From a virus: 42,792 nucleotides of DNA. The notes beneath the pieces are model-generated. The model was not told the DNA's origin, did no database searches, and worked only from the letters and a program-made list of their open reading frames with translations. Shown here piece by piece: positions 1 to 42,792 of the stretch (position 1 is its first letter; every line of letters starts with the position of its first letter). The stretch spans positions 1 through 42,792 of IMG/VR virus record IMGVR_UViG_3300002461_000026. One strand, written 5' to 3'. The translations under genes were made by a program, and so were the position numbers.

Positions 1-94
1 GTATCCCTAGATGGAGAATCCATAGGGAAGCGCAGCGCACCATAGGATGAGCCAGATAGGTTCACCACCCCGGGTATAATCCCGGCAACTAAGC
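1..94. repeat. Direct terminal repeat, left copy
   Basis: Bases 1-94 are identical base for base to 42699-42792. This fits T7-type terminal redundancy, or alternatively an assembly overlap. It contains an imperfect palindrome (CCCTAGATGGA 5-15 / TCCATAGGG 19-27) and a CCGGG-TATAAT-CCCGG hairpin (70-85). Confidence 0.9.
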
Positions 95-2431: not shown

Positions 2432-4225
2432 CTACCTCCGTCTTGAGTGGGATACCCTGCGTTGTACGCGAGAGTCCAAAGTTCGTCGTGTACCTCGTCC
2501 CAGTTGGGAGGGCGCTATGCCGTAGCCCATCGGGTCGGCCATGTATTCTGCGTGCGCTGCTTCCTGCCGAGCGGCTGCTGCCTTGTGCTCGTCCTTGTCT
2601 AGGACGTGCTTGAACTCGCGAATCGCGCCTGCTGCGGCTTCAATGCGGTCATCACTTACCAGCGACTGCCGGTCGGTCGTGATGTTCGCAATCTGATACC
2701 ACAGGCTGCGGTGCGTGCGCTGTTCGAGGCTGTGCTGCTTGTTGTACTTCACGTCGCTGTCGAACACCTGCTGGTGCACAACAACCCGGTGCCGCTGCAT
2801 CGCGCTCACCATCGAGTCGATGATGCGCTTTTCCTTCTGGTTCGTGCTGTACTCACCAGAGATGGCCGTAGCCAGATGCGCGAGGTCCGGGTGCTTCGAG
2901 AAGATGGCGCGAAGGGAAATCTCGAACAGGCCGTGGCCCATGTTCGATTCCACCTTGATGCGCAGCACCTTGTTCCGCCGCACGATGTCCACAAGCTCGC
3001 GCTCGGTGGCCTCGTTCAAGCCGCCCTTCAAGCCGCCCGCGTCTAGCAGGTGGATGTACGGGCCGAGTGCGCAGGACACGCCGAAGCCGATCTCGTCAGT
3101 GCCGCCGCCAGCCGGGTCCACGAACATGAACACGTCTTTAGGCGCGACGAGGTTGCACTGATACGCCGGGGCGTAGTACATCTTCGCCATGGTCACAGGG
3201 AACTCAGGGCCGAGCGGTACGGCCAGCGCGTTCGTGGCCTGCCACCCGACGATCTCGGGCAGAAGCTCGCGCCCGAAGTTCGCGACGATCAGGTCAGACA
3301 GCCGAAGCTGCTGGCGCAGTGCGTCCACCAACGAGGTGTCGAGCATGTACTGAAGCTGGAAGTCTTCCGGCCCCTTGTCGAGTTCCTTCTCGATCAGGTC
3401 CACGTTCGTGTATCGACCCGGGTCGGTTGGCTGGCCGCGAGTGCCGTCGATACCACCGCCAGTGCGCAGCGAGGGGTTAGCCTGCATGCGCTCAACGATC
3501 AGGGGCGCGAGGCGACCCGCGTACTTTTCTTCCTCGTCCTCGGTCGGGTAGCGACCCGGCCAGATGCGGATAGTGAAGCCACGGCCCGGCAGGGTGTTGT
3601 ATATCGAGTCCTTAGACTGGGGCGTGCCCAAGTACAGGATATCGCCGTGCGTACAGATAGACGAGAACTCCTTGGACAGGTGCAGCAGTTGCGCACGCTG
3701 CGTGGGATTCAGGCCGTTCTTGTTCGACTCGATGTCATCGGGGATGAGCAAGTCAGCGCGGCGACCGGGCAGGTTCGAGGTGATACCGGCACAGGCGATG
3801 CTGGGCGAGCGGTCGAGGCCCTTGATGGACCAGTGCACGTCGAACGCATCCGTCGAGGTGCGGTCGCCAGCGTGGCGGTCAGGGCGCAGGCATTCGAGGA
3901 TGTCCCAGTTCAGGATCAGTCGAACGATCAGCGTAGCGGTGTCGGACGAGTTGTCCTCACCGGCAGAGATGATGAGCACGCGGGTGCTCGGGCGGTGGAT
4001 GATACACCAGATCGCGAACAGTGCCGCGAGGGTGGTCTTCGCTTCGCCACGCTGAGCCATAACCATGCGAAGGCGTGGGCCGTGCTGCATGAACTCAGCG
4101 ATGTCTTCTTGAACGTCCGTCAGCGGGAAGCCGAGGAACGCCATGCCGTCTAGCGCGAAGTCCCGGAAGTCCTCGTACTGCTCGGCGAGTTCCCGTACGG
4201 CTGCGAACCGCTGTTCGGGACTCAT
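2432..4225 (-). CDS. terL: Terminase large subunit
   Basis: 597 aa. Walker A-like AQRGEAKTT, Walker B-like VLIISAGED, and a C-terminal nuclease region (FVDPAGGGTDE). ATGA overlap with the small subunit gene. T7 gp19-like position. Confidence 0.95.
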   Translation of the reverse strand: MSPEQRFAAVRELAEQYEDFRDFALDGMAFLGFPLTDVQEDIAEFMQHGPRLRMVMAQRGEAKTTLAALFAIWCIIHRPSTRVLIISAGEDNSSDTATLIVRLILNWDILECLRPDRHAGDRTSTDAFDVHWSIKGLDRSPSIACAGITSNLPGRRADLLIPDDIESNKNGLNPTQRAQLLHLSKEFSSICTHGDILYLGTPQSKDSIYNTLPGRGFTIRIWPGRYPTEDEEEKYAGRLAPLIVERMQANPSLRTGGGIDGTRGQPTDPGRYTNVDLIEKELDKGPEDFQLQYMLDTSLVDALRQQLRLSDLIVANFGRELLPEIVGWQATNALAVPLGPEFPVTMAKMYYAPAYQCNLVAPKDVFMFVDPAGGGTDEIGFGVSCALGPYIHLLDAGGLKGGLNEATERELVDIVRRNKVLRIKVESNMGHGLFEISLRAIFSKHPDLAHLATAISGEYSTNQKEKRIIDSMVSAMQRHRVVVHQQVFDSDVKYNKQHSLEQRTHRSLWYQIANITTDRQSLVSDDRIEAAAGAIREFKHVLDKDEHKAAAARQEAAHAEYMADPMGYGIAPSQLGRGTRRTLDSRVQRRVSHSRRR

Positions 4226-7739: not shown

Positions 7740-10700
7740 TTACTCCTTTACCATGTTTGCAACTCCACGCACAAAGGGCATGGCTGATACGACTGGGAAC
7801 ATCGTAAGTGCGGCGTTACCCACCGCTCCCGGGTCCATGTGCAGGCCACCTTGAACCAGCTTCACACCCCGGTCAACGGGGATAAGGGCGGGTGCCCCTA
7901 CGCTATTCGATTCGCCGGTGGCCCACTTCAGTGGCTCACTGAACAGGCCGAGCCCGCCCATCTGTCCGATGGACTTCTTGACGAGCGCCTCAGCATCCAG
8001 CAGGCCTTCGCCTTTGATCACACTCTGTGCCTGAACTGCCGCCATTGCGAGCGGGAACTGATACAGCATGATGAGGCCAACGGCGCTCGAACCTTCGCGG
8101 GCCAATTCACCGGAGAGTTTCTTGTTGTGCGCAACCAGCACGAACGTGCGGTACGTGAACACGAACTTACCCACCGGATCAAATGCAGCGAATGCTGGCA
8201 TGTCGCCGAGCCTGCCCTTGAGGACGGATGAATCCATCATCTTCGACACACCGGGGCGCACCTGCGCCCACACATCATCGGACCACTTATCGACGTTGAA
8301 GCCGTGAGCCTTAATCTCTGCGGCCAGCTTGTCCATTACGGGCGACTCTATACCGTACCGTTGCATCGCGGCGCGGGCCTTTGCATCACCCTTCGCGGCC
8401 ATATCCAGCCGGTCTAGGATCAGGTTGCCCACTAGCTTCGCTTGGTGGTGGTGCACGTACTTCATGCCGTTCGCAAACGGCACTGCGTTGCCCCACGATT
8501 GCGCGGATAGATTCAGGGCGCTCGTGCTGTCCATGTCGTAGCCGTCCTCGTAGCGCGACAGGTACGGGCGCAGCCGCAGGGACTGCACGCTCCAGTCAGA
8601 CAGCACCGTGTTCAGCGAGTTCGCTGTGGGCGCATCCGGCTTCAGAAGCTGCTTGAACCCGGGGAACTCCCGGATCGCAACAGCCAGCGTCTTGCGCAGG
8701 CCGTACTTCGCCATGATGTTCGCGTACTCAGTCGCCTGCCACAGGCCTGACCACGGGAGCGAGATCGTGCGACCGTACTGCTGAAGCAGCCGGAAGTTCT
8801 CGTTCATCTTCGCCCCGCTCGGTGCGCCTCGGTAGTAGTCCATCGTGTTGTCGAACAAGTCCTTCGCCGCCTCACGCTGCGCGACCGGGGTGTCACGCAG
8901 CAGGTCCTCGCGGAGCTTCATGATGTCGGTGCGCTTCGGTAGGCCGCTGCGGGCAAACGCCGCCGATGTGGCGACCTGCTTGTTGTACTGATCCACGATG
9001 CTCGACACGTTCGAGTCGATCAGGTCCATGATGCTGATGTTCTCGTCGCCTACGCGCAGGGTTGCTCGGTAGTCCAAGTCCATGCGGCGCTTCAGCAGGC
9101 CCTGCTTACCAGCCTCATCCGTCTCGACGCGGAGCACATCCATCGCACGCTCCACATCCTCGGGACTCATGCCGCTGCTCTTGAGCACATCGCGCATCTC
9201 GCCCATCGCCTTGTCGCCAGCGCCGTTGAATGCGCCGTCCTCGAAGTACCCCTTGCGGAGCGAGCGGTTCACGATGGCCCCGCCGATCTGGTCGGCTACC
9301 TCCGCATCCATCGTCGAGTTCGCACGGCGCAGACTCAAGGCCACGAGGCTAGTCACACGGGCCGTCGCAGCTTCGCGGGTCAGCCCACGCGCCTCTAGGC
9401 GGTCGAGCACGTTGTCGATAGCTTGGCTGCTCCACTTGCGGTTCAGGTAGCCTGCACGCTCCAGCAGTTCCTCGGCACCCTCGACACCTGCGGCCTTCAT
9501 CTCGGCTAGTGCCTTCTTGTGCATGCGGTCCAGCGCGTCGGCCATCTTGGTGATAGGCGTCGGCGGTACGGCTGCGTCAACCGACGTCGCACCGTTGCGG
9601 CTGAGTTGGTCACGGCGGAACAGTTCTCGCTGCACCTCGCGCTCGATGCTACGCTGCGTGGCGTGTGCCTCACGGCTCGTCAGCGGATTCGCCATACGCA
9701 GCCAGCCTGCACCGCGCTCGGCCATGTGTGCCCGCAGCAGGTCCTCGTACTCGACTTGGCCCTGACGCAGCCCGTGCAGGATCGCTTCGCGGTGCGCCTC
9801 CACACTGGTGCGTGAGAGGTCGCTGTTGTTGTCGTACAGCAGGTCGGCCACACGCTTGCCCGCTTCGCCGTAGCTGCCCATGGTCTTGCGCATGTTCCAC
9901 TGCAAGGTCTCACCCCAGCCGCGTGACTTCGCGTCAGCGTTCAGGGCGGTCTCCACAGCCTCGGCAACCTCGGCGGGTGCGTGCTGGGCGGTGGGGTGCA
10001 GCGGCGACTGCGGACGCTCCGTCAGCAGGGTGCGGGTCCCATCCGTGTTCAGCTTGTACCGGGGCTTGATGGAGTCCTCCACAGCCCGCGTGATGTTGTT
10101 CAACTGCTCGGCGGGGAATGTCGGATCACGTGGTACCATGGCACCGTTGCGGAAGAACACACCACCGGCTGCGCCAGCCATCAGCATGGACAGGCCGATG
10201 GTCTGGTCGCTCGTAGGCCCCTCACCAGCGGCTGTAACACCACCGGCAATACCTGCGGATGTGCCGGCACTTACAGCACGCCCAGCGGGGCCTGCAAGGC
10301 CTCCTACGCGGATGGCTGGAGGGATAGCAAGCCACACCGGGTCCCCGAAGGACGCGATGAATGCCCCGACAGGGTGGTCGCCCATCACCTCCACCGCCTG
10401 CCGCTGGTCCTTGATGGTCTGGATAGCGTAAGCTGCGGACTTGTCCCCGGTCATCACGCTGTTGGCGAATTCCAGCTCGTCCTCGGTCAAGGCCATCGGC
10501 ACTTGCGACAGGTACTCGGCCCGTTCAGCCGGGCCGAACTTAATCTCGTCGTCGAAGCTGGGCCGTGCGATACGGTCCACCAACTTCGTCGCAGACCACT
10601 GCGACACCGCAGCGCCCATGCTCTCCAGCAAGGAGGCATCGGGGCGTGCGAGTCGCGCATCGCGGGCAGCACGGGCTTCAGCGAAGCCCGGCTGGTCCCG

Positions 10701-18117: not shown

Positions 18118-19140
18118 TCAGTCCGTGGCAATCACTGCCGATGCGTCACCGCGCTTGAGGCCCACGGTGTACATGCAGTACGAGTCCAGCACGTTCGCGA
18201 ACTCGGCCTTGTCGTCCCAGACGCGAGCGACCATGCCCTGTGCTTCCACAGTGACGAGGGTCTTGCGCGGGTGGAACAGGACCATGCGGGCCCTGGCTTC
18301 GTCGGCTGTCACGTTGAAGTTCGTGCCGAGGAAGTGCGCCGGGATGGCGGCGGTCGGGAAGCGGGGCGTCTCCACCACGCGCAGGCCGTTCAGCACAGCC
18401 ACGCGACGGTGCGCGAAGCTGTTGTCGCTGGAGCCGCCTTGGAACTCGACGTTCATCAGCTTCTTGTGGTCCAGCAGGATGTTGAACGCATCGGGCTCGA
18501 TCAGGGTCGAGAACTCGGCCAGCGAACCGCCGAGGTCACGCTTCACGAACACGGCGAGCGCGTTCTTGTGGGCTTGCACCAGCAGGTCGGCAGCGGTCTC
18601 GCGACCGGCTTCGGTGTTCAGCGCAACGGCGGCGTTGTAGCCAGCCATCACGGTGCGGATGCCATCGTTGAATGCGCCACTGGCCTTCAGCGAGGCCGGG
18701 GCAGCCCACGAGCCTGCCTTGATCAGTTGGATCAGGTGGGCTTGGTCGAACGCCTTGGCGTGCGCGGAGCCGTGCTCTTGGCTGTACTCGGCTTGGAAGT
18801 CCGGTGCGGTCCAGTCGTCTTGGTAGTCCACGGGCGTACGGATGTACGAGGTCGTGTCCACAGTGATGAGGACCTTCTCGTTCACGATGCGGGTGCTGTC
18901 CAGCGCCTCACCGGCCTTACGGCCCTTCACAACTGCGCCACCGACGCGATCACCGCGCCACGTGTTCGAGCGACCGGCGACGGGTTTGTAGTTCGTCAGG
19001 CCGCTGGAGCGGAACAGCGATTCGACTCGGAACGAGCCTTCGATGTCGCCTTCGTAGGCTTCGAGGTGGATGTCTTGGTCGGCGTTCGCACCGGCCCAGT
19101 GACTGCGGGACAGGTTGGCATTGTATGCGGTATCAGGCAT
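18118..19140 (-). CDS. Major capsid protein (T7 gp10-like)
   Basis: 340 aa. AAGGAA upstream. Strongly G/C-ending codons. Region EKVLITVDTTSYIRTPVDYQDDW parallels T7 gp10 EKVITIDGLLTADVLIYDIED. Follows the scaffold gene. Confidence 0.95.
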   Translation of the reverse strand: MPDTAYNANLSRSHWAGANADQDIHLEAYEGDIEGSFRVESLFRSSGLTNYKPVAGRSNTWRGDRVGGAVVKGRKAGEALDSTRIVNEKVLITVDTTSYIRTPVDYQDDWTAPDFQAEYSQEHGSAHAKAFDQAHLIQLIKAGSWAAPASLKASGAFNDGIRTVMAGYNAAVALNTEAGRETAADLLVQAHKNALAVFVKRDLGGSLAEFSTLIEPDAFNILLDHKKLMNVEFQGGSSDNSFAHRRVAVLNGLRVVETPRFPTAAIPAHFLGTNFNVTADEARARMVLFHPRKTLVTVEAQGMVARVWDDKAEFANVLDSYCMYTVGLKRGDASAVIATD

Positions 19141-22320: not shown

Positions 22321-22489
22321 GGGTCTTCCTCCGAATTGCTTCCATGACATCTTGTTGCCCAAAGTATTGCCGCATGAGGGCTTCAGAGCTTGAGGGTCCA
22401 TGTACTACATGAGGGAAGATACCTTCAAGGTACTGTACTTGTTCATGAGTGAAGGTTACTTGACTATTACTTCTCTTAGGTGTATTCAT
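22283..22489 (-). CDS. Hypothetical 68-aa protein in an AT-rich islet (possible ribbon-helix-helix-like N-terminus)
   Basis: GAAGGAGAAGGAG lies 2 nt upstream of the ATG at 22487-22489. Protein: MNTPKRSNSQVTFTHEQVQYLEGIF... The 5' half uses A/T-ending codons unlike the rest of the genome. The 3' end overlaps the GNAT gene in another frame. Confidence 0.55.
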   Translation of the reverse strand: MNTPKRSNSQVTFTHEQVQYLEGIFPHVVHGPSSSEALMRQYFGQQDVMEAIRRKTRGIAVHNIPTPG

Positions 22490-22527
22490 AACTCCTTCTC
22501 CTTCTTCATCCATTACGGGATACTCTA

Positions 22528-24990
22528 TCAACTGAACATGAATTCGCTTTGCAGCACGTCCTGTAGGTTCAACTCCCCGCGCTGTGGCGGTTCGCCGATG
22601 CCTCCGACTTCCCAAAGGAATTCGGCAAGCAGATTGCTACGTGAGTACAGGCTAACAAATTCCTTGCGGATGATCTCTTGCATCCGGTCCACATCACATG
22701 GGTGTGTACCGAACGAGTCGTGGATCGCCACAACGTCCAAGCCTTCGCGGTGCATTTCGTTCGCCACCATGGTTAGGTGACTGGCGTCAAGTGCGTGCAC
22801 GAAGTTCGGGCTGATTGCATTCGCCATGCTGTGAGCGCGGGTACCCTCGGTCCAGTCGCGTACCCAGATGTGCGTCACGCCGCAGGAGTTCAGCTTGACG
22901 CGCACGTCTTTGAACTCTTGGTAATCGTGCTGCACCCAGAATCCGGTGGGAGTGTGCCACGTCATGCGCTTGCCGTTCGGCATCTGGCGGCTGATGTCCT
23001 TGAGCCACTGCATCGCTGCTGCGGCTGCGGGGACGGCCACGGCGATACCGGCGAACAGCCTCTTCGCGATGTACATGCAGTGCTCGAAGGACTTCGTGGG
23101 CTCAAGCCACGTCTTGCCAGCGGCAGACAGCAGCCCCTTGTTCAGCAGCATCTCGATGTGCTCCGCGCTTCCGCGCAGCGTGGCACCGTACACGTACGTC
23201 ATCACAGGCTTCTTCGCCATGTCGCGGGGAATGCCCACGTCGAGGCACCACTGGGCCAGCGTGCGAACATCCTCGTCGGTGCTTTCGAGGTCAAGCTGGA
23301 TCATGCGCAGCGTTGCCGTAGCCACGCGGCTGTAGATGTCCTGCTTGGGGCCGCATTGGTTCGGATCGGTCAGGTTCACGTACAGCCCGCCCACGGGGTC
23401 GCGCAGCAGGGCGCTGAAGTGTTGCAGCCCTGAGCACGTGGCGTCCATGTGGATCGGGATGCCGGTGCGGTACGCAGCCGGGTTGCCTGAGCGGTACGCC
23501 TCACGGAGTTCCCACGCGGCGCTGAACATGCACCACGGTGCGTCCTTGCCCCAGACCTCGGGGCTGTCCTCGGGGTTGTCCAGCGCGAGTGCAATGCGGT
23601 CCCAGTTCTGCTCGGTCCAGCGTGCCCGGTCGTCCATGCGCTCCTTGTCGAAGCCGAACGAGTTCGCAATGTGCACCTTCAGCCAGTACAGGCCGCGCTC
23701 TCCCAGCGACTTCTGGCGGTCGAAGTGCAGCACACCCTTCGCCAGATCGGAGCCCTGCGGATTCGGGAGGCCACGGTAGTACCAGCGGCCACGGGAGTCG
23801 AAGTACATCGGGAACCAGTACGGGCCGACTGCCTCACGGGTCGAGCGCAGGAACGAGCCGACTTCGCGGACCCGGCCCTTCCACTCGCGTAGCTCCTCGT
23901 AGTACGCGGCGACGCTGCGCTTCCACTGATTGAACACGGCAAGCTCGTCCTCGGTCGCGGACTCGCGCACCCACGTCTCGCTCAGCGGGAACTCGGGGCG
24001 CACGGGCGGGCGGTTGCTAGGGACGCCCATGACGTTGCCACCGCTGGACCACACCCGCACGGTGCCGTCACGGGTGGGCACGTGCATGCGGAACGGGATG
24101 CTTTGCATGTAGTTCCCGGCGTTGAACACCTGCGGCATCTTCTCGGCGGTGAACGCCTCAGCCACAGCGCCTCGTGCATCCTTGCGGAGCTTCCGCACGT
24201 TCAGCAGCGGGGCCGCAGCCTTGCGGCGGATGCTGAGGTACCCGCCGTCTGTGAGGTTCGTCCATGGATCGGGCTCGCACAGCATGCGCGTGTCCTCCTT
24301 GCTGATGAGGCCGCGCACATCGTCGCGGTCGTATCCCATCAGAAAGTCGGCCACATCGTCGGCCAGCACGTACGCGACAGTCGTGCCGTTCTTGTTCACA
24401 CCCCGGACCATCTCGATGAGGCCAGCGTCGAAGCATGCGTCGATGCCGAACTTGCCGATCTGCATCATCTCGGCCTTCGTGATGCTCAGGTCCAGTGTGC
24501 CCTTGAACACACGGTCCACGGCCACGTTGTACAGGCGGCGCAGGTGCTGCCGGTCGCGGGTGGCGTGGTCCTTCACCTGATCGTGCACCTTCTGCATGTA
24601 CACGGGGTTCACAGCCTCTGCCTGCCGGATGCGGACCTCTAGCTCCCAGAGCTTGCCCACGTTCGAGGTCAGGTCCTGCACGTGCACATGCGTGTCGGGG
24701 CTGCTGCACATGCGGATGCACTCACGAATGCTGATGACCGCAGCCACTTCACTTGGGAGTGCACGCAGCCACGTCTTGTACTTGCCGCCGAGCCCACGGG
24801 TCGTCTCACCCGCTACGCGCTCAAGCGACTCCTGCACGGCTGCGCACATGCGACCGATAAGCGCGTGTGCCCGGGGCAGGTCAGCGTCACCCTTCTGGGC
24901 CGCTGCAATCAACTCCTTCAGCCGGTGCGCTTGCGCCTCGGTGTCGGTGTCGAGTTCATACCGCAACTGCACATCGCGCAGATCGTTCAT
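22528..24990 (-). CDS. Single-subunit DNA-dependent RNA polymerase (T7 gp1-like)
   Basis: 820 aa. HMDATCSGLQHFSA and VAIHDSFGTH match the T7 RNAP catalytic motifs (DGSCSGIQHFSA, HDSFGT). AAGGAG lies 6 nt upstream. Confidence 0.97.
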   Translation of the reverse strand: MNDLRDVQLRYELDTDTEAQAHRLKELIAAAQKGDADLPRAHALIGRMCAAVQESLERVAGETTRGLGGKYKTWLRALPSEVAAVISIRECIRMCSSPDTHVHVQDLTSNVGKLWELEVRIRQAEAVNPVYMQKVHDQVKDHATRDRQHLRRLYNVAVDRVFKGTLDLSITKAEMMQIGKFGIDACFDAGLIEMVRGVNKNGTTVAYVLADDVADFLMGYDRDDVRGLISKEDTRMLCEPDPWTNLTDGGYLSIRRKAAAPLLNVRKLRKDARGAVAEAFTAEKMPQVFNAGNYMQSIPFRMHVPTRDGTVRVWSSGGNVMGVPSNRPPVRPEFPLSETWVRESATEDELAVFNQWKRSVAAYYEELREWKGRVREVGSFLRSTREAVGPYWFPMYFDSRGRWYYRGLPNPQGSDLAKGVLHFDRQKSLGERGLYWLKVHIANSFGFDKERMDDRARWTEQNWDRIALALDNPEDSPEVWGKDAPWCMFSAAWELREAYRSGNPAAYRTGIPIHMDATCSGLQHFSALLRDPVGGLYVNLTDPNQCGPKQDIYSRVATATLRMIQLDLESTDEDVRTLAQWCLDVGIPRDMAKKPVMTYVYGATLRGSAEHIEMLLNKGLLSAAGKTWLEPTKSFEHCMYIAKRLFAGIAVAVPAAAAAMQWLKDISRQMPNGKRMTWHTPTGFWVQHDYQEFKDVRVKLNSCGVTHIWVRDWTEGTRAHSMANAISPNFVHALDASHLTMVANEMHREGLDVVAIHDSFGTHPCDVDRMQEIIRKEFVSLYSRSNLLAEFLWEVGGIGEPPQRGELNLQDVLQSEFMFS

Positions 24991-33536: not shown

Positions 33537-34807
33537 GTTGCGCCCGCCCCATCGTTGAAGACGCAGCGCGAGCCGTCGAAGTAAAGTTCCGCCTGCACTT
33601 GGCTGGGTTTGCCGGGTGCTGCGAACTTGTTCTTCACCGTGCTGATGCCGCGCAGTGACTGCGCCTCGGCCATGTCGAGAGCACCCATCATCAGGATCAC
33701 ATCGGTCGCACCCTGAATGCCGGTCTTGCTGTCCTTCATGGCGCTGTACGGCGGGTACAGCATGTTCCCACCCTCGGCGCTGATCTGCACCGTGGCGATG
33801 CCGATGGCCTCGTGACGCACCATGATCTCGCGCCACTCCTGCCACAACTGCTCCACACCGTCCGCTTTGTTCGCGCCGTTCTGCGGGCCGCCGAGTCGGA
33901 AGTTCGCCAGCATGTCAGCGACCACAACGGCGGGCCGCTGCTGCTCGATGATCTGCTCGACTTGGGCCATGCTCGCACCGTGCATGTCCTTGATGCGGAT
34001 CATGTCCCAGCTACCGATGGCGGCAGCGTACGCGGCGTCCAACTCGTTCGCGTTCGACATCGCCATGATCTCATTCAGGTCCTTGCCGAGCGCGGCTTGG
34101 TACACACGCGGGATGATGCGCTTGCCGGGGCCTTCGTTGTTCAGCCACAGGATCGGGCGCTCGCCGCCGTACATCTGATGCACCTGCGGTGCGAAGTCCG
34201 TGAGGATCGCGGCCACGAGCGATGTCTTGCCCTTGTCAGGCCGTGCAGCAATGGCGAGAGACGCACCCGGTTGCAGGCCTAGAATATGGTCGCGAGTACA
34301 GGCCCAACGGCGCAGCTTGAGGCCGCTGTCGTTCGCCACCTCGGCGAGTAATTCGCGGATGTTCGTGCGGATGTAGTCTTCACCAGTGCTGACGGCCTTC
34401 TGACGCACAGCAGCCTGCGCGAGCCTGCTGAGTTCGTACGCTAGGTCGATCTCCTCGCCCGCTTGGTAGCGTTCGATGAGTGCTGCCGAGCGCCCGCTAA
34501 GGTCAAGCTCGACAAGCTGGCCGAGTATGCCGTTCAGCGCCACATCGTCAGGCTTCTTGCGAAGCTGCTCGGTGAGGTGCATCGTAATCGCCATGGACTC
34601 AGGGGATGCGTTGCCAGATCGCAGGCGGATGAGCGACTGCAATTCGTCCACGTCCACACGCTCCCGCTCAGGGAACGCGGCGAAGTACGCAGCATACCAC
34701 TGAAGCAGGGCGGAGGTATCGGGCGCGAGCATCCCCTGCGGCACCGCATGACGCAGTGAGTTGTGCTTTACCTTGTCGGAAAGCGCATGCAGTAATAGGG
34801 CGTCCAA
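33533..34807 (-). CDS. DnaB-like replicative helicase (T7 gp4 helicase-domain-like)
   Basis: Walker A in AARPDKGKTSLVAA, Walker B-like PAVVVADML, RecA-type core. TTG start 5-6 nt after GAAGGA. Confidence 0.9.
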   Translation of the reverse strand: MDALLLHALSDKVKHNSLRHAVPQGMLAPDTSALLQWYAAYFAAFPERERVDVDELQSLIRLRSGNASPESMAITMHLTEQLRKKPDDVALNGILGQLVELDLSGRSAALIERYQAGEEIDLAYELSRLAQAAVRQKAVSTGEDYIRTNIRELLAEVANDSGLKLRRWACTRDHILGLQPGASLAIAARPDKGKTSLVAAILTDFAPQVHQMYGGERPILWLNNEGPGKRIIPRVYQAALGKDLNEIMAMSNANELDAAYAAAIGSWDMIRIKDMHGASMAQVEQIIEQQRPAVVVADMLANFRLGGPQNGANKADGVEQLWQEWREIMVRHEAIGIATVQISAEGGNMLYPPYSAMKDSKTGIQGATDVILMMGALDMAEAQSLRGISTVKNKFAAPGKPSQVQAELYFDGSRCVFNDGAGAT

Positions 34808-41642: not shown

Positions 41643-42077
41643 TGTGGGACTCCATTGTTACCCGATGCAGGATTGCATCTTGATCGGCCCTTGAGGGGCC
41701 ATCATCATTGCCCATACATTTTACGGACAAGGACCGATCAAGATGCGCACTCATAGAGTGCGCCCTATTGGGTTTGTTAATCGGCTTGCGGTAGGCTGAG
41801 CGCGTCTCAGTCATGTACCATCAAGCCGATATGGTTCCGCCCGTCCAAATGCAGGGCACGAGTACCACATCGCTCAGCTATTTTCATGGGCATAGCTTCA
41901 GCGCCCATGGTGCACTCAGGTAGCACCCGATTCCTACAGTTCGGCTTCTGGCTCTACCTTATCGGCTTGTGCCATCTACCTCGCCCCGTTTGGCGATGAG
42001 CGCATGAGACCCGTAAGCCTTACGGCTTGATCTGCTCATGTCCCGCGAAGTCCGATCACTTCGCTTTCGTTGCCTCA

Positions 42078-42106
42078 AGTGTAGCACACTTTTCGGCGGG
42101 TTGCAA
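42078..42106 (-). promoter_or_regulatory. Host sigma70-type early promoter C
   Basis: Minus strand: TTGCAA (42101-42106), 17-bp spacer, TGc-TACACT (-10 at 42078-42083). Confidence 0.55.
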
Positions 42107-42170: not shown

Positions 42171-42201
42171 ATTGTAGCACAGTTCCGGGCTACTCTGTCA
42201 A
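42171..42201 (-). promoter_or_regulatory. Host sigma70-type early promoter B
   Basis: Minus strand: TTGACA (42196-42201), 19-bp spacer, TGc-TACAAT (-10 at 42171-42176). The spacer is longer than optimal. Confidence 0.5.
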
Positions 42202-42307
42202 ACCTTTTCTAGTGGGTGCTAGGTGCGTTTAAACCATCCCGCTAGGTGCTGCGTTAGTCGATGTCCCGGAGCCAACCGGATGCACATTCGCGCTGCACTA
42301 GGTCTGC

Positions 42308-42337
42308 ATCATAACACAGTCTGGGACTGCCTGCAAA
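42308..42337 (-). promoter_or_regulatory. Host sigma70-type early promoter A
   Basis: Minus strand: TTTGCA (42332-42337), 18-bp spacer, TGt-TATGAT (-10 at 42308-42313). Confidence 0.45.
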
Positions 42338-42549
42338 CTCGATTCTGAAGTGATGTTCAGGTGCCGGGCTGTTCCCGATTCGATGAACGAAGTATACACC
42401 AGATTTTCAAGCTGTGCACACTTCGCATGCAAATTCTTTTGTGAGTGCATACAACCCAGTGCAGCACATAAGAGGCACCACAAGAGCAGCACAGCGCGAT
42501 CGCATACCCAGCATGCACAGCGAGAGTGTCGCATAACGTACCCGGGAAA

Positions 42550-42660
42550 CGTGGATATCCTGTGGATAACCTAGCTACATCGTTGATTCCATTGGAGAAT
42601 AAGTCTCGATGGAGTGTTTATCCACAAGGTTATCAACAGAGTTATACATGCTGTGGATAA
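42550..42660. promoter_or_regulatory. DnaA-box cluster (three perfect, two degenerate)
   Basis: TGTGGATAA at 42561-42569 and 42652-42660, and TTATCCACA at 42618-42626, are perfect matches. TTATCAACA at 42630-42638 has one mismatch, and CGTGGATAT at 42550-42558 has two. The local sequence is AT-rich. Confidence 0.75.
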
Positions 42661-42698
42661 GGTTTGTAAGCTCTTGATTCTAGAGGACATTTGATAGA

Positions 42699-42792
42699 GT
42701 ATCCCTAGATGGAGAATCCATAGGGAAGCGCAGCGCACCATAGGATGAGCCAGATAGGTTCACCACCCCGGGTATAATCCCGGCAACTAAGC
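42699..42792. repeat. Direct terminal repeat, right copy
   Basis: Identical to 1-94. Confidence 0.9.

Follow-up and report, generated by a model that had tools for sequence, protein, structure and literature searches.

All long open reading frames of the window (by which we mean the whole stretch of DNA analysed here, 42,792 bp) lie on the minus strand, together with four host-type early promoters. The phage therefore reads from position 42792 downwards, and the patch that is the subject of this work (42540-42700) is located at the phage left end. The RNA polymerase (820 aa, 22528-24990) is 74% identical to its counterpart in the Sphaerotilus phage vB_SnaP-R1 (SnaP-R1 below) and 73% identical to that of the Macromonas phage BK-30P, both members of the Krylovirinae within the Autographiviridae. 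The gene order is collinear with that of SnaP-R1, a T7-type terminase is present, and the phage carries its own primase and helicase. Judged from its sequence, the genome is that of a Krylovirinae-like Autographiviridae phage from activated-carbon metagenomes, which agrees with the T7-type lytic phage recognized in the preliminary description of this DNA.

The window closes with a 94-bp exact copy of its own beginning. The same phage was found, through the exact product of its second early gene, in MEGAHIT assemblies of the activated-carbon metagenome PRJNA301005; one of the contigs (L010) spans the "ends" of the window uninterrupted with 99.8% identity, while another (L011) breaks elsewhere, at window position ~588. 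Because independent assemblies cross this point or break at a different one, the 94-bp repeat is an assembly overlap, produced by a genome that assembles as a circle, and it was rejected as evidence of the physical ends. The SnaP-R1 and BK-30P records contain no terminal repeat. The patch had been placed between a terminal repeat and tandem early promoters; its position upstream of the tandem host-type promoters stands, whereas a position beside the terminal repeat is not supported. Elsewhere, at about 440-480 of the window, the copy number of a tandem 9-mer (GGGGTGCCC on the phage strand) differs among L010, L011 and a third assembly, L352.

In phage orientation, the left-end element (42716-42666) is followed by the box array (42660-42550), about 130 nt of DNA, the four host-type promoters, a leader of ~430 nt and the first gene (41642-41430); the distance from the boxes to the first good promoter is 130-270 nt (Table 1). 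None of the early proteins has a known function or a DnaA-related domain, and no match was returned when the product of the first early gene alone was used as the query against viral contigs. The leader (41643-42075, minus strand) is the sole non-coding stretch with nucleotide similarity to distant relatives (73% to BK-30P). Its fold comprises several hairpins, and a five-sequence alignment shows compensatory changes in 38 of the 76 predicted pairs. It may act as a structured leader of the early transcripts or as a site of RNase III-type processing. Searches of the patch for Rfam families and tRNAs gave no hits, and a coding reading of the patch was rejected, as the small ORFs across it are without support from relatives.

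Table 1. Coordinates of the features discussed in the text (window positions unless stated otherwise).
Feature	Position	Strand	Remarks
Perfect DnaA box TTATCCACA	42561-42569	-	box 4 in phage orientation; consensus scan
Perfect DnaA box TTATCCACA	42618-42626	+	first of a three-box head-to-tail run with 12-bp period
Perfect DnaA box TTATCCACA	42652-42660	-	convergent with the three-box run
Variant DnaA box TTATCAACA, one mismatch	42630-42638	+	3 bp past the perfect box 42618-42626
Weak DnaA box ATATCCACG, two mismatches	42550-42558	-	2 bp from the box 42561-42569; 11-bp period
Weak DnaA box TTATACATG	42642-42650	+	two mismatches to TTWTNCACA
Weak DnaA box TTATTCTCC	42594-42602	-	two mismatches to TTWTNCACA
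Perfect IHF consensus AATCAAGAGCTTA	42667-42679	-	6 bp from the box 42652-42660; edge of the array
IHF-like site AATCAACGATGTA	42576-42588	-	one mismatch to WATCAANNNNTTR, by eye; in the 48-bp gap between boxes
Diverged direct copy of 42648-42714	42557-42614		offset 91-100 bp; repeat finder
Phage-promoter-like 20-mer ATAGAGTATCCCTAGATGGA	42694-42713	+	outward-facing, away from the genes; core of the left-end element
20-mer ATAGAGTnnCCCGTAATGGA	22509-22528	-	gene direction; right after the RNA polymerase stop codon
20-mer ATAGAGTnnCCCGTAATGGA	8332-8351	-	gene direction; inside the internal virion protein gene
94-bp exact copy of window 1-94	42699-42792		overlap of contig ends; the genome assembles as a circle
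First host-type early promoter TGCACA-16-TATACT	42391-42420	-	promoter scans; follows the cluster after ~130 nt
Second host-type early promoter TTTGCA-18-TATGAT, TG-extended	42308-42337	-	promoter scans
Third host-type early promoter TTGACA-19-TACAAT	42171-42201	-	promoter scan
Fourth host-type early promoter TTGCAA-17-TACACT	42078-42106	-	promoter scan
First early gene, 70 aa	41430-41642	-	conserved in relatives
Four-box array of L170/L186	L186 (reverse complement) 3657-3700; L170 599-642		between late genes and early promoters

The three perfect DnaA boxes lie exactly where, and on the strands on which, the preliminary description had placed them, and they are the only perfect copies of TTATCCACA in the window. 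Shuffling gives an expectation of 0.08 copies for this 9-mer, lower than the 0.3 assumed before, and none of 100 shuffled windows contained three or more. With the local base composition of the patch, the probability of at least three perfect boxes in 161 bp is ~1.5e-9, so the earlier claim that the clustering is not due to chance holds. When one mismatch to TTATCCACA is allowed, the whole window yields nine matches versus 3.5 expected, four of them, including TTATCAACA, inside the patch. The one-mismatch and two-mismatch boxes reported before (TTATCAACA and ATATCCACG) are both present, and the complete array, with three perfect boxes, TTATCAACA and three weak boxes, spans 111 bp.

On the plus strand, a perfect box (42618), a one-mismatch box (42630) and a two-mismatch box (42642) form a run that abuts the convergent perfect box at 42652-42660. 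The minus-strand pair, with its perfect and weak members 2 bp apart, is separated from the rest of the array by 48 bp. Such an arrangement, with spacings of 2-3 bp and strong boxes beside weak ones, is by its pattern typical of cooperative DnaA arrays. The only inverted pair detected by a repeat search in the patch (13 nt, with 54 nt between the arms) is formed by the boxes themselves, and the same search showed that the flanks beyond the box core are alike between boxes (AGGTTATCMACAG). The array is a genuine DnaA-box cluster, rare for a T7-type phage, and we infer that host DnaA is likely to bind the patch in vivo.

The patch was described as AT-richer than the genome, and its GC content is indeed 41% versus 62% for the genome, so that it ranks among the two patches of lowest GC in the window. 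A second low-GC patch (22331-22580, 39%) contains a small AT-rich ORF of about 66 aa with its ATG at 22488, located directly after the RNA polymerase gene and a promoter-like 20-mer; it looks like a foreign small gene. The perfect IHF consensus occurs twice in the genome (0.14 expected), and the offset of the copy at the edge of the box array is kept in four relatives. The IHF-like site between the boxes is part of a duplicated unit (Table 1), each copy of which contains a box, the TTGATT core of an IHF site and part of a 19-mer, the latter present in 42557-42614 as a remnant of the promoter-like motif. Since the two copies share the unit of box, IHF site and motif, part of the array arose by a local duplication of ~91 bp. 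The box in the duplicated unit is not significantly better conserved than its own flanks (about p = 0.1, an estimate). Neither an AT-rich unwinding element, searched for as a 13-mer with at least 11 A/T, nor DnaA-trios, searched for as a run of at least three WAR trinucleotides, was found in 42400-42698 and 1-300.

The left-end element, which precedes the array in phage orientation, is composed of CCATyTAGGGATACT followed by AT-rich DNA and TAGAATCAA, and is common to three relatives (L014, L017 and L123); a variant of it is present in SnaP-R1 (record position 9) and in L006, L007, L119 and L125. The 20-mer at its core is an inverted variant, with three mismatches, of the 20-mer that occurs twice in gene direction elsewhere in the window. 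SnaP-R1 (L002) carries ATAGAATCACCCGTAATGGA at the two homologous places (18830-18849 and 33643-33662) and also an inverted left-end copy (5-24, minus strand), its version of the motif beginning with ATAGAATCACCC. The window phage and SnaP-R1 differ in the upstream half of the motif, whereas within either genome that half is constant. The 20-mer is probably the phage-RNA-polymerase promoter of this clade. The DNA upstream of the copy at 42694-42713 is low in GC, whereas the DNA downstream of it is GC-rich. In the relatives, ~50 nt of box-free DNA separate the left-end element from the first host-type promoter; the corresponding distance in the window phage is ~245 nt, and its first 110 nt are the box array. 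After the RNA polymerase gene of SnaP-R1 (L002 18791-18849), the promoter-like motif forms an inverted pair with 19-nt arms ~25 nt apart, of which the window phage retains the forward arm alone.

Four assemblies, ~99% identical and drawn from two sequencing series, carry the boxes intact; among them are L010, L011 and L352, the last 99.1% identical and derived from the other run series (SRR28154530). At the homologous locus, boxes were found in none of about 22 relatives: two cultured phages, ten loci of viral and metagenome collections reached through the neighbouring gene (six IMG/VR viral contigs and four loci of a metagenome-contig collection) and ten other public contigs (Logan/ENA). SnaP-R1 has no box with up to one mismatch in its whole 41.5 kb, and BK-30P has no box cluster. 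In the box-less relatives L014-L017, the neighbouring protein is 80-82% identical and the flanks align at 75-89%; these relatives were recovered from the same run series as the boxed phage. The alignment to the nearest relatives breaks exactly over window 42286-42698 and 1-257, a span that includes the boxes, which places them in the hypervariable part of the non-coding region. The boxes thus sit in ~200 bp of lineage-specific, hypervariable non-coding DNA that includes the 91-bp duplication.

The wider base rate is similarly low. No box cluster was found in 100 more loci flanking T7-like terminase genes (22 in 197 kb and 78 in 803 kb, some of which stop short of the left end), and these loci contain eight perfect boxes in all. 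The left ends of T7 and phiKMV have no DnaA box with up to one mismatch, and a search of the literature on DnaA boxes in Autographiviridae or T7-like phages returned nothing. The array is thus as unexpected for this type of phage as the preliminary description supposed. Its absence from all relatives found means that it is dispensable, and the absence from relatives as close as L014-L017 speaks against an essential role. The array is an accessory, lineage-specific gain, neither a core feature of the phages in this group nor essential to them, and it is neither the core phage origin nor a required entry device.

Possible sources of the array were sought with the pattern TTATCCACA-N2-4-TTATCAACA-N8-20-TGTGGATAA in 185,579 genomes, one per bacterial species. 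The 60 matches were in low-GC genomes (25-58% GC), mostly of Firmicutes; none showed homology to the window, and none carried a Burkholderiales title. Nearest ORFs were listed for eight of the loci, six of which were covered by a Pfam scan of the ORFs. At three of the eight the three-box pattern lies directly beside dnaA or dnaN, and at a fourth it lies beside yidC/mnmE. The recurrence beside dnaA/dnaN indicates that the three-box arrangement is a natural DnaA module. The pattern scan and a BLAST search of the patch identified no donor in genomes, phages or plasmids, so that horizontal capture from a host origin is neither supported nor refuted by them. The same three-box arrangement is present in all of ~35 viral contigs of IMG/VR (L078-L117; ~9-15 kb, 35% GC) that come mostly from one sample (3300045988) and appear to be one family of small elements.

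DnaA boxes in the DNA of a virulent phage have a precedent in T5, whose injection-stop signal (iss) boxes were described by Heusterspreute (1987), as cited in Davison (bioRxiv 10.1101/866236). According to the latter account, about eight boxes, arranged as four pairs with members 3 bp apart, lie in the non-coding part of the first-entering terminal repeat; the pairs are placed in large inverted repeats (IRC/IRD) with a fixed 52-bp spacer, and the boxes are conserved in 25 T5-like phages (bioRxiv 10.1101/866236). Davison proposed in this preprint, as a hypothesis, that membrane-associated DnaA at the iss boxes stops DNA entry, and argued that the boxes are not an origin and are unrelated to replication; the second-step transfer uses the A1/A2 proteins (bioRxiv 10.1101/866236). 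We verified the T5 boxes in the sequence at 9437-9518, with the pair TTATCCACA-GAC-TTATCAACA at 9498-9518.

A scan of IMG/VR for the pair TTATCCACA-N3-TTATCAACA gave at least 120 loci, and among the 120 matches listed two were T7-like, L170 and L186, which is no enrichment over the T7-like share of the collection, itself roughly estimated. These two contigs, 99.4% identical and derived from two samples, encode a T7-type terminase 71-73% identical to that of Lauvirus lau218 (Autographiviridae). They contain four tandem boxes, two perfect and two of the TTATCAACA type (TTATCCACA-N3-TTATCAACA twice, with a 23-bp period), ~95 nt upstream of the first early promoter, TTGACA-17-TAATAA; an early promoter of L186 has its second hexamer overlapped by a one-mismatch box. 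No boxes of this type were found in lau218. An unrelated T7-like lineage has thus placed a DnaA array, independently and in a lineage-specific manner, at the same relative position. The shared position is weak evidence, because non-coding DNA in such genomes concentrates at the ends. L170 and L186 also have a palindromic motif, AATTGTTCACAGTGAACAAAATA, before several of their early genes.

The explanation that we favour is that this lineage gained a DnaA array in the hypervariable DNA between the conserved left-end element and the host-type early promoters, part of the array coming from the ~91-bp local duplication of a unit of box, IHF-like site and promoter-like motif. DnaA, probably with IHF, would assemble on the DNA upstream of the early promoters, at the end that enters the cell first in T7-type phages, and would act there in cis during the first minutes of infection. 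The complex could serve to hold the leading end or to pace it, or could shape the DNA architecture locally, ahead of early transcription, an effect that would parallel the proposal for the T5 injection-stop box pairs. A role at the leading end is favoured by where the array lies, by the conserved IHF site next to it, and by the examples of T5 and L186. An entry site was among the roles first suggested for the cluster, and it is the one option with a real precedent, the T5 boxes. We assign a probability of about 35% to a cis-acting complex of DnaA, with or without IHF, on the leading-end DNA early in infection. A much broader extension seems to us a long shot: the capture of DnaA and IHF on first-entering non-coding DNA would be a recurrent, independently evolved device of virulent phages with stepwise entry, fixed in T5-like phages and sporadic in T7-like ones (the window lineage and L170/L186), in which membrane-associated DnaA would hold, pace or protect the leading end until the host RNA polymerase takes over.

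The main rival to the leading-end role is that the boxes are neutral passengers, which have arisen or been captured recently by recombination with unidentified DNA and by duplication, may bind DnaA and will decay. The distribution of the boxes fits such a history: no relative carries them, they occupy the sole stretch that does not align to the nearest relatives, local duplication accounts for two of them, and the known copies, all ~99% identical, have had little time for decay. Mere passengers would, however, hardly be expected to comprise three perfect 9-mers with ordered weak boxes at 2-3 bp spacing. The searches of genomes, phages and plasmids yielded no donor, a similar array occupies the same relative place in an unrelated T7-like phage, and T5-like phages conserve arrays of this kind. 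We consider a neutral origin credible, if on the whole unlikely.

DnaA regulates transcription both from its own promoter and from the lambda pR promoter, and DnaA bound to the patch could similarly repress or activate the leftmost early promoter, so that expression would track the growth state of the host. The preliminary description envisaged a minus-strand promoter that bound DnaA could occlude. The pair it pointed to exists: TTACAA (42669-42664) and TATAAC (42646-42641) are separated by a 17-nt spacer in which the box 42652-42660 lies, with further boxes just downstream, and the overlap of box and promoter in L186 might be read in the same way. As a promoter, however, the pair is weak, since the first hexamer matches at 3/6 positions and the second is without the final T, and it was reported by neither of two promoter scans. 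Four good promoters are available 130-470 nt away, and the relatives manage with a first promoter ~50 nt after the left-end element and no boxes. DnaA-gated early transcription is, in our estimation, improbable.

Manipulation of the host DnaA pool, in which the boxes would titrate DnaA, or would behave as datA does (ATP hydrolysis) or as DARS does (nucleotide exchange), and so disturb host initiation, was also put forward at first, as a datA-like decoy. What speaks for it is that boxes of the high-affinity type with an adjacent IHF consensus resemble datA and DARS2, and that a single box opposed to a head-to-tail pair is reminiscent of the DARS core. Against this, a phage genome offers only 3-7 sites, the opposed boxes are 13 bp apart (1 bp with the weak box) instead of the 5 bp found in DARS, and the relatives do without boxes. 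Blocking initiation would moreover add little in a cell whose DNA is degraded by T7-type endo- and exonucleases, such as those annotated in a relative. The decoy idea is thereby weakened to a slim chance.

The chances of an auxiliary DnaA-assisted origin, another of the initial suggestions, are equally slim. DnaA and IHF would in this case open the DNA by the promoter-like motif, and the phage helicase would be loaded there. T7 origins consist of a phage promoter and AT-rich DNA, and T7 has a secondary origin near the left end; the patch likewise brings together boxes, an IHF site, the lowest GC content and an adjacent phage-promoter-like motif. This resemblance is offset by the absence of the unwinding element and of DnaA-trio runs, by the location of the low-GC DNA upstream and not downstream of the motif, by the phage having a primase and a helicase of its own, and by the relatives that share the left-end element without the boxes; the T5 boxes, too, were judged unrelated to replication (bioRxiv 10.1101/866236). 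It is hardly credible that the boxes are sites of another protein, phage-encoded or another host factor, with an incidental match to the DnaA box, for although the extended flanks are alike between boxes and there are early proteins without known function, the match is to the exact 9-mer consensus, TTATCAACA, which is the most frequent variant in nature, is found at the 3-bp spacing of natural arrays, and the box-less relatives carry the same early genes.

For the present, the array is a rarity of one uncultured phage lineage, and no conservation argues for a function. If DnaA does act on the leading end of a T7-type phage, a host factor would be added to early steps that are supposed to be DnaA-independent, and the T5 injection-stop idea, itself unproven, would gain a second and much simpler system. 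The boxed and box-less forms, with ~80% identity of the adjacent protein and presence in the same run series, provide a natural comparison.

Among known chromosomal systems, the array resembles the left half of oriC, datA and DARS1/2 of E. coli in having strong boxes flanked by weak ones at 2-3 bp and an IHF consensus beside or between boxes, and its one box facing two head-to-tail boxes recalls the DARS core. It differs from oriC in that the box cluster is present without an unwinding element or DnaA-trios, and from DARS in the spacing of the opposed boxes. In datA, the boxes flank a single IHF site, while here the perfect IHF site is at the edge of the array and a one-mismatch site lies between the boxes. 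The array is, moreover, carried by a lytic phage genome.

Consensus DnaA boxes, often with IHF, recruit host DnaA in lambda, P1, F, pSC101 and ColE1-type replicons, and these replicons rely on the loading of host DnaB and encode an initiator of the Rep or O type, with iterons. The window phage differs from these temperate-phage and plasmid origins in its T7-type replication genes and in having no iterons or initiator gene beside the boxes. The layout of its left end is instead that of T7 (A0, phiOL, A1-A3) and phiKMV (terminal repeat, four host promoters, first ORF), namely a non-coding leading end, tandem host-type promoters over ~350 bp, a long leader and the first gene. T7 also has a phage-promoter-like motif near the left end, although the copy in the window points outward, and whereas in a T7-type origin AT-rich DNA lies downstream of the phage promoter, the low-GC DNA of the window lies upstream of the candidate promoter.

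DnaA-box arrays were already known in the non-coding DNA of virulent T5-like phages; the present case concerns a T7-type phage. The array of the window phage, with four strong and three weak boxes in mixed orientation, is without the large inverted repeats of T5, and while the T5 boxes are conserved across 25 T5-like phages, the window array is absent from all relatives found. The two systems nevertheless share the same type of 3-bp-spaced pair, with the spacer GAC in T5 and AGG in the window (TTATCCACA-AGG-TTATCAACA, 42618-42638). In both, the phage is virulent, and the boxes lie apart from the origin, be it known or expected, in a non-coding region close to the first-entering end, which for the window phage is the end predicted by its T7-type layout.
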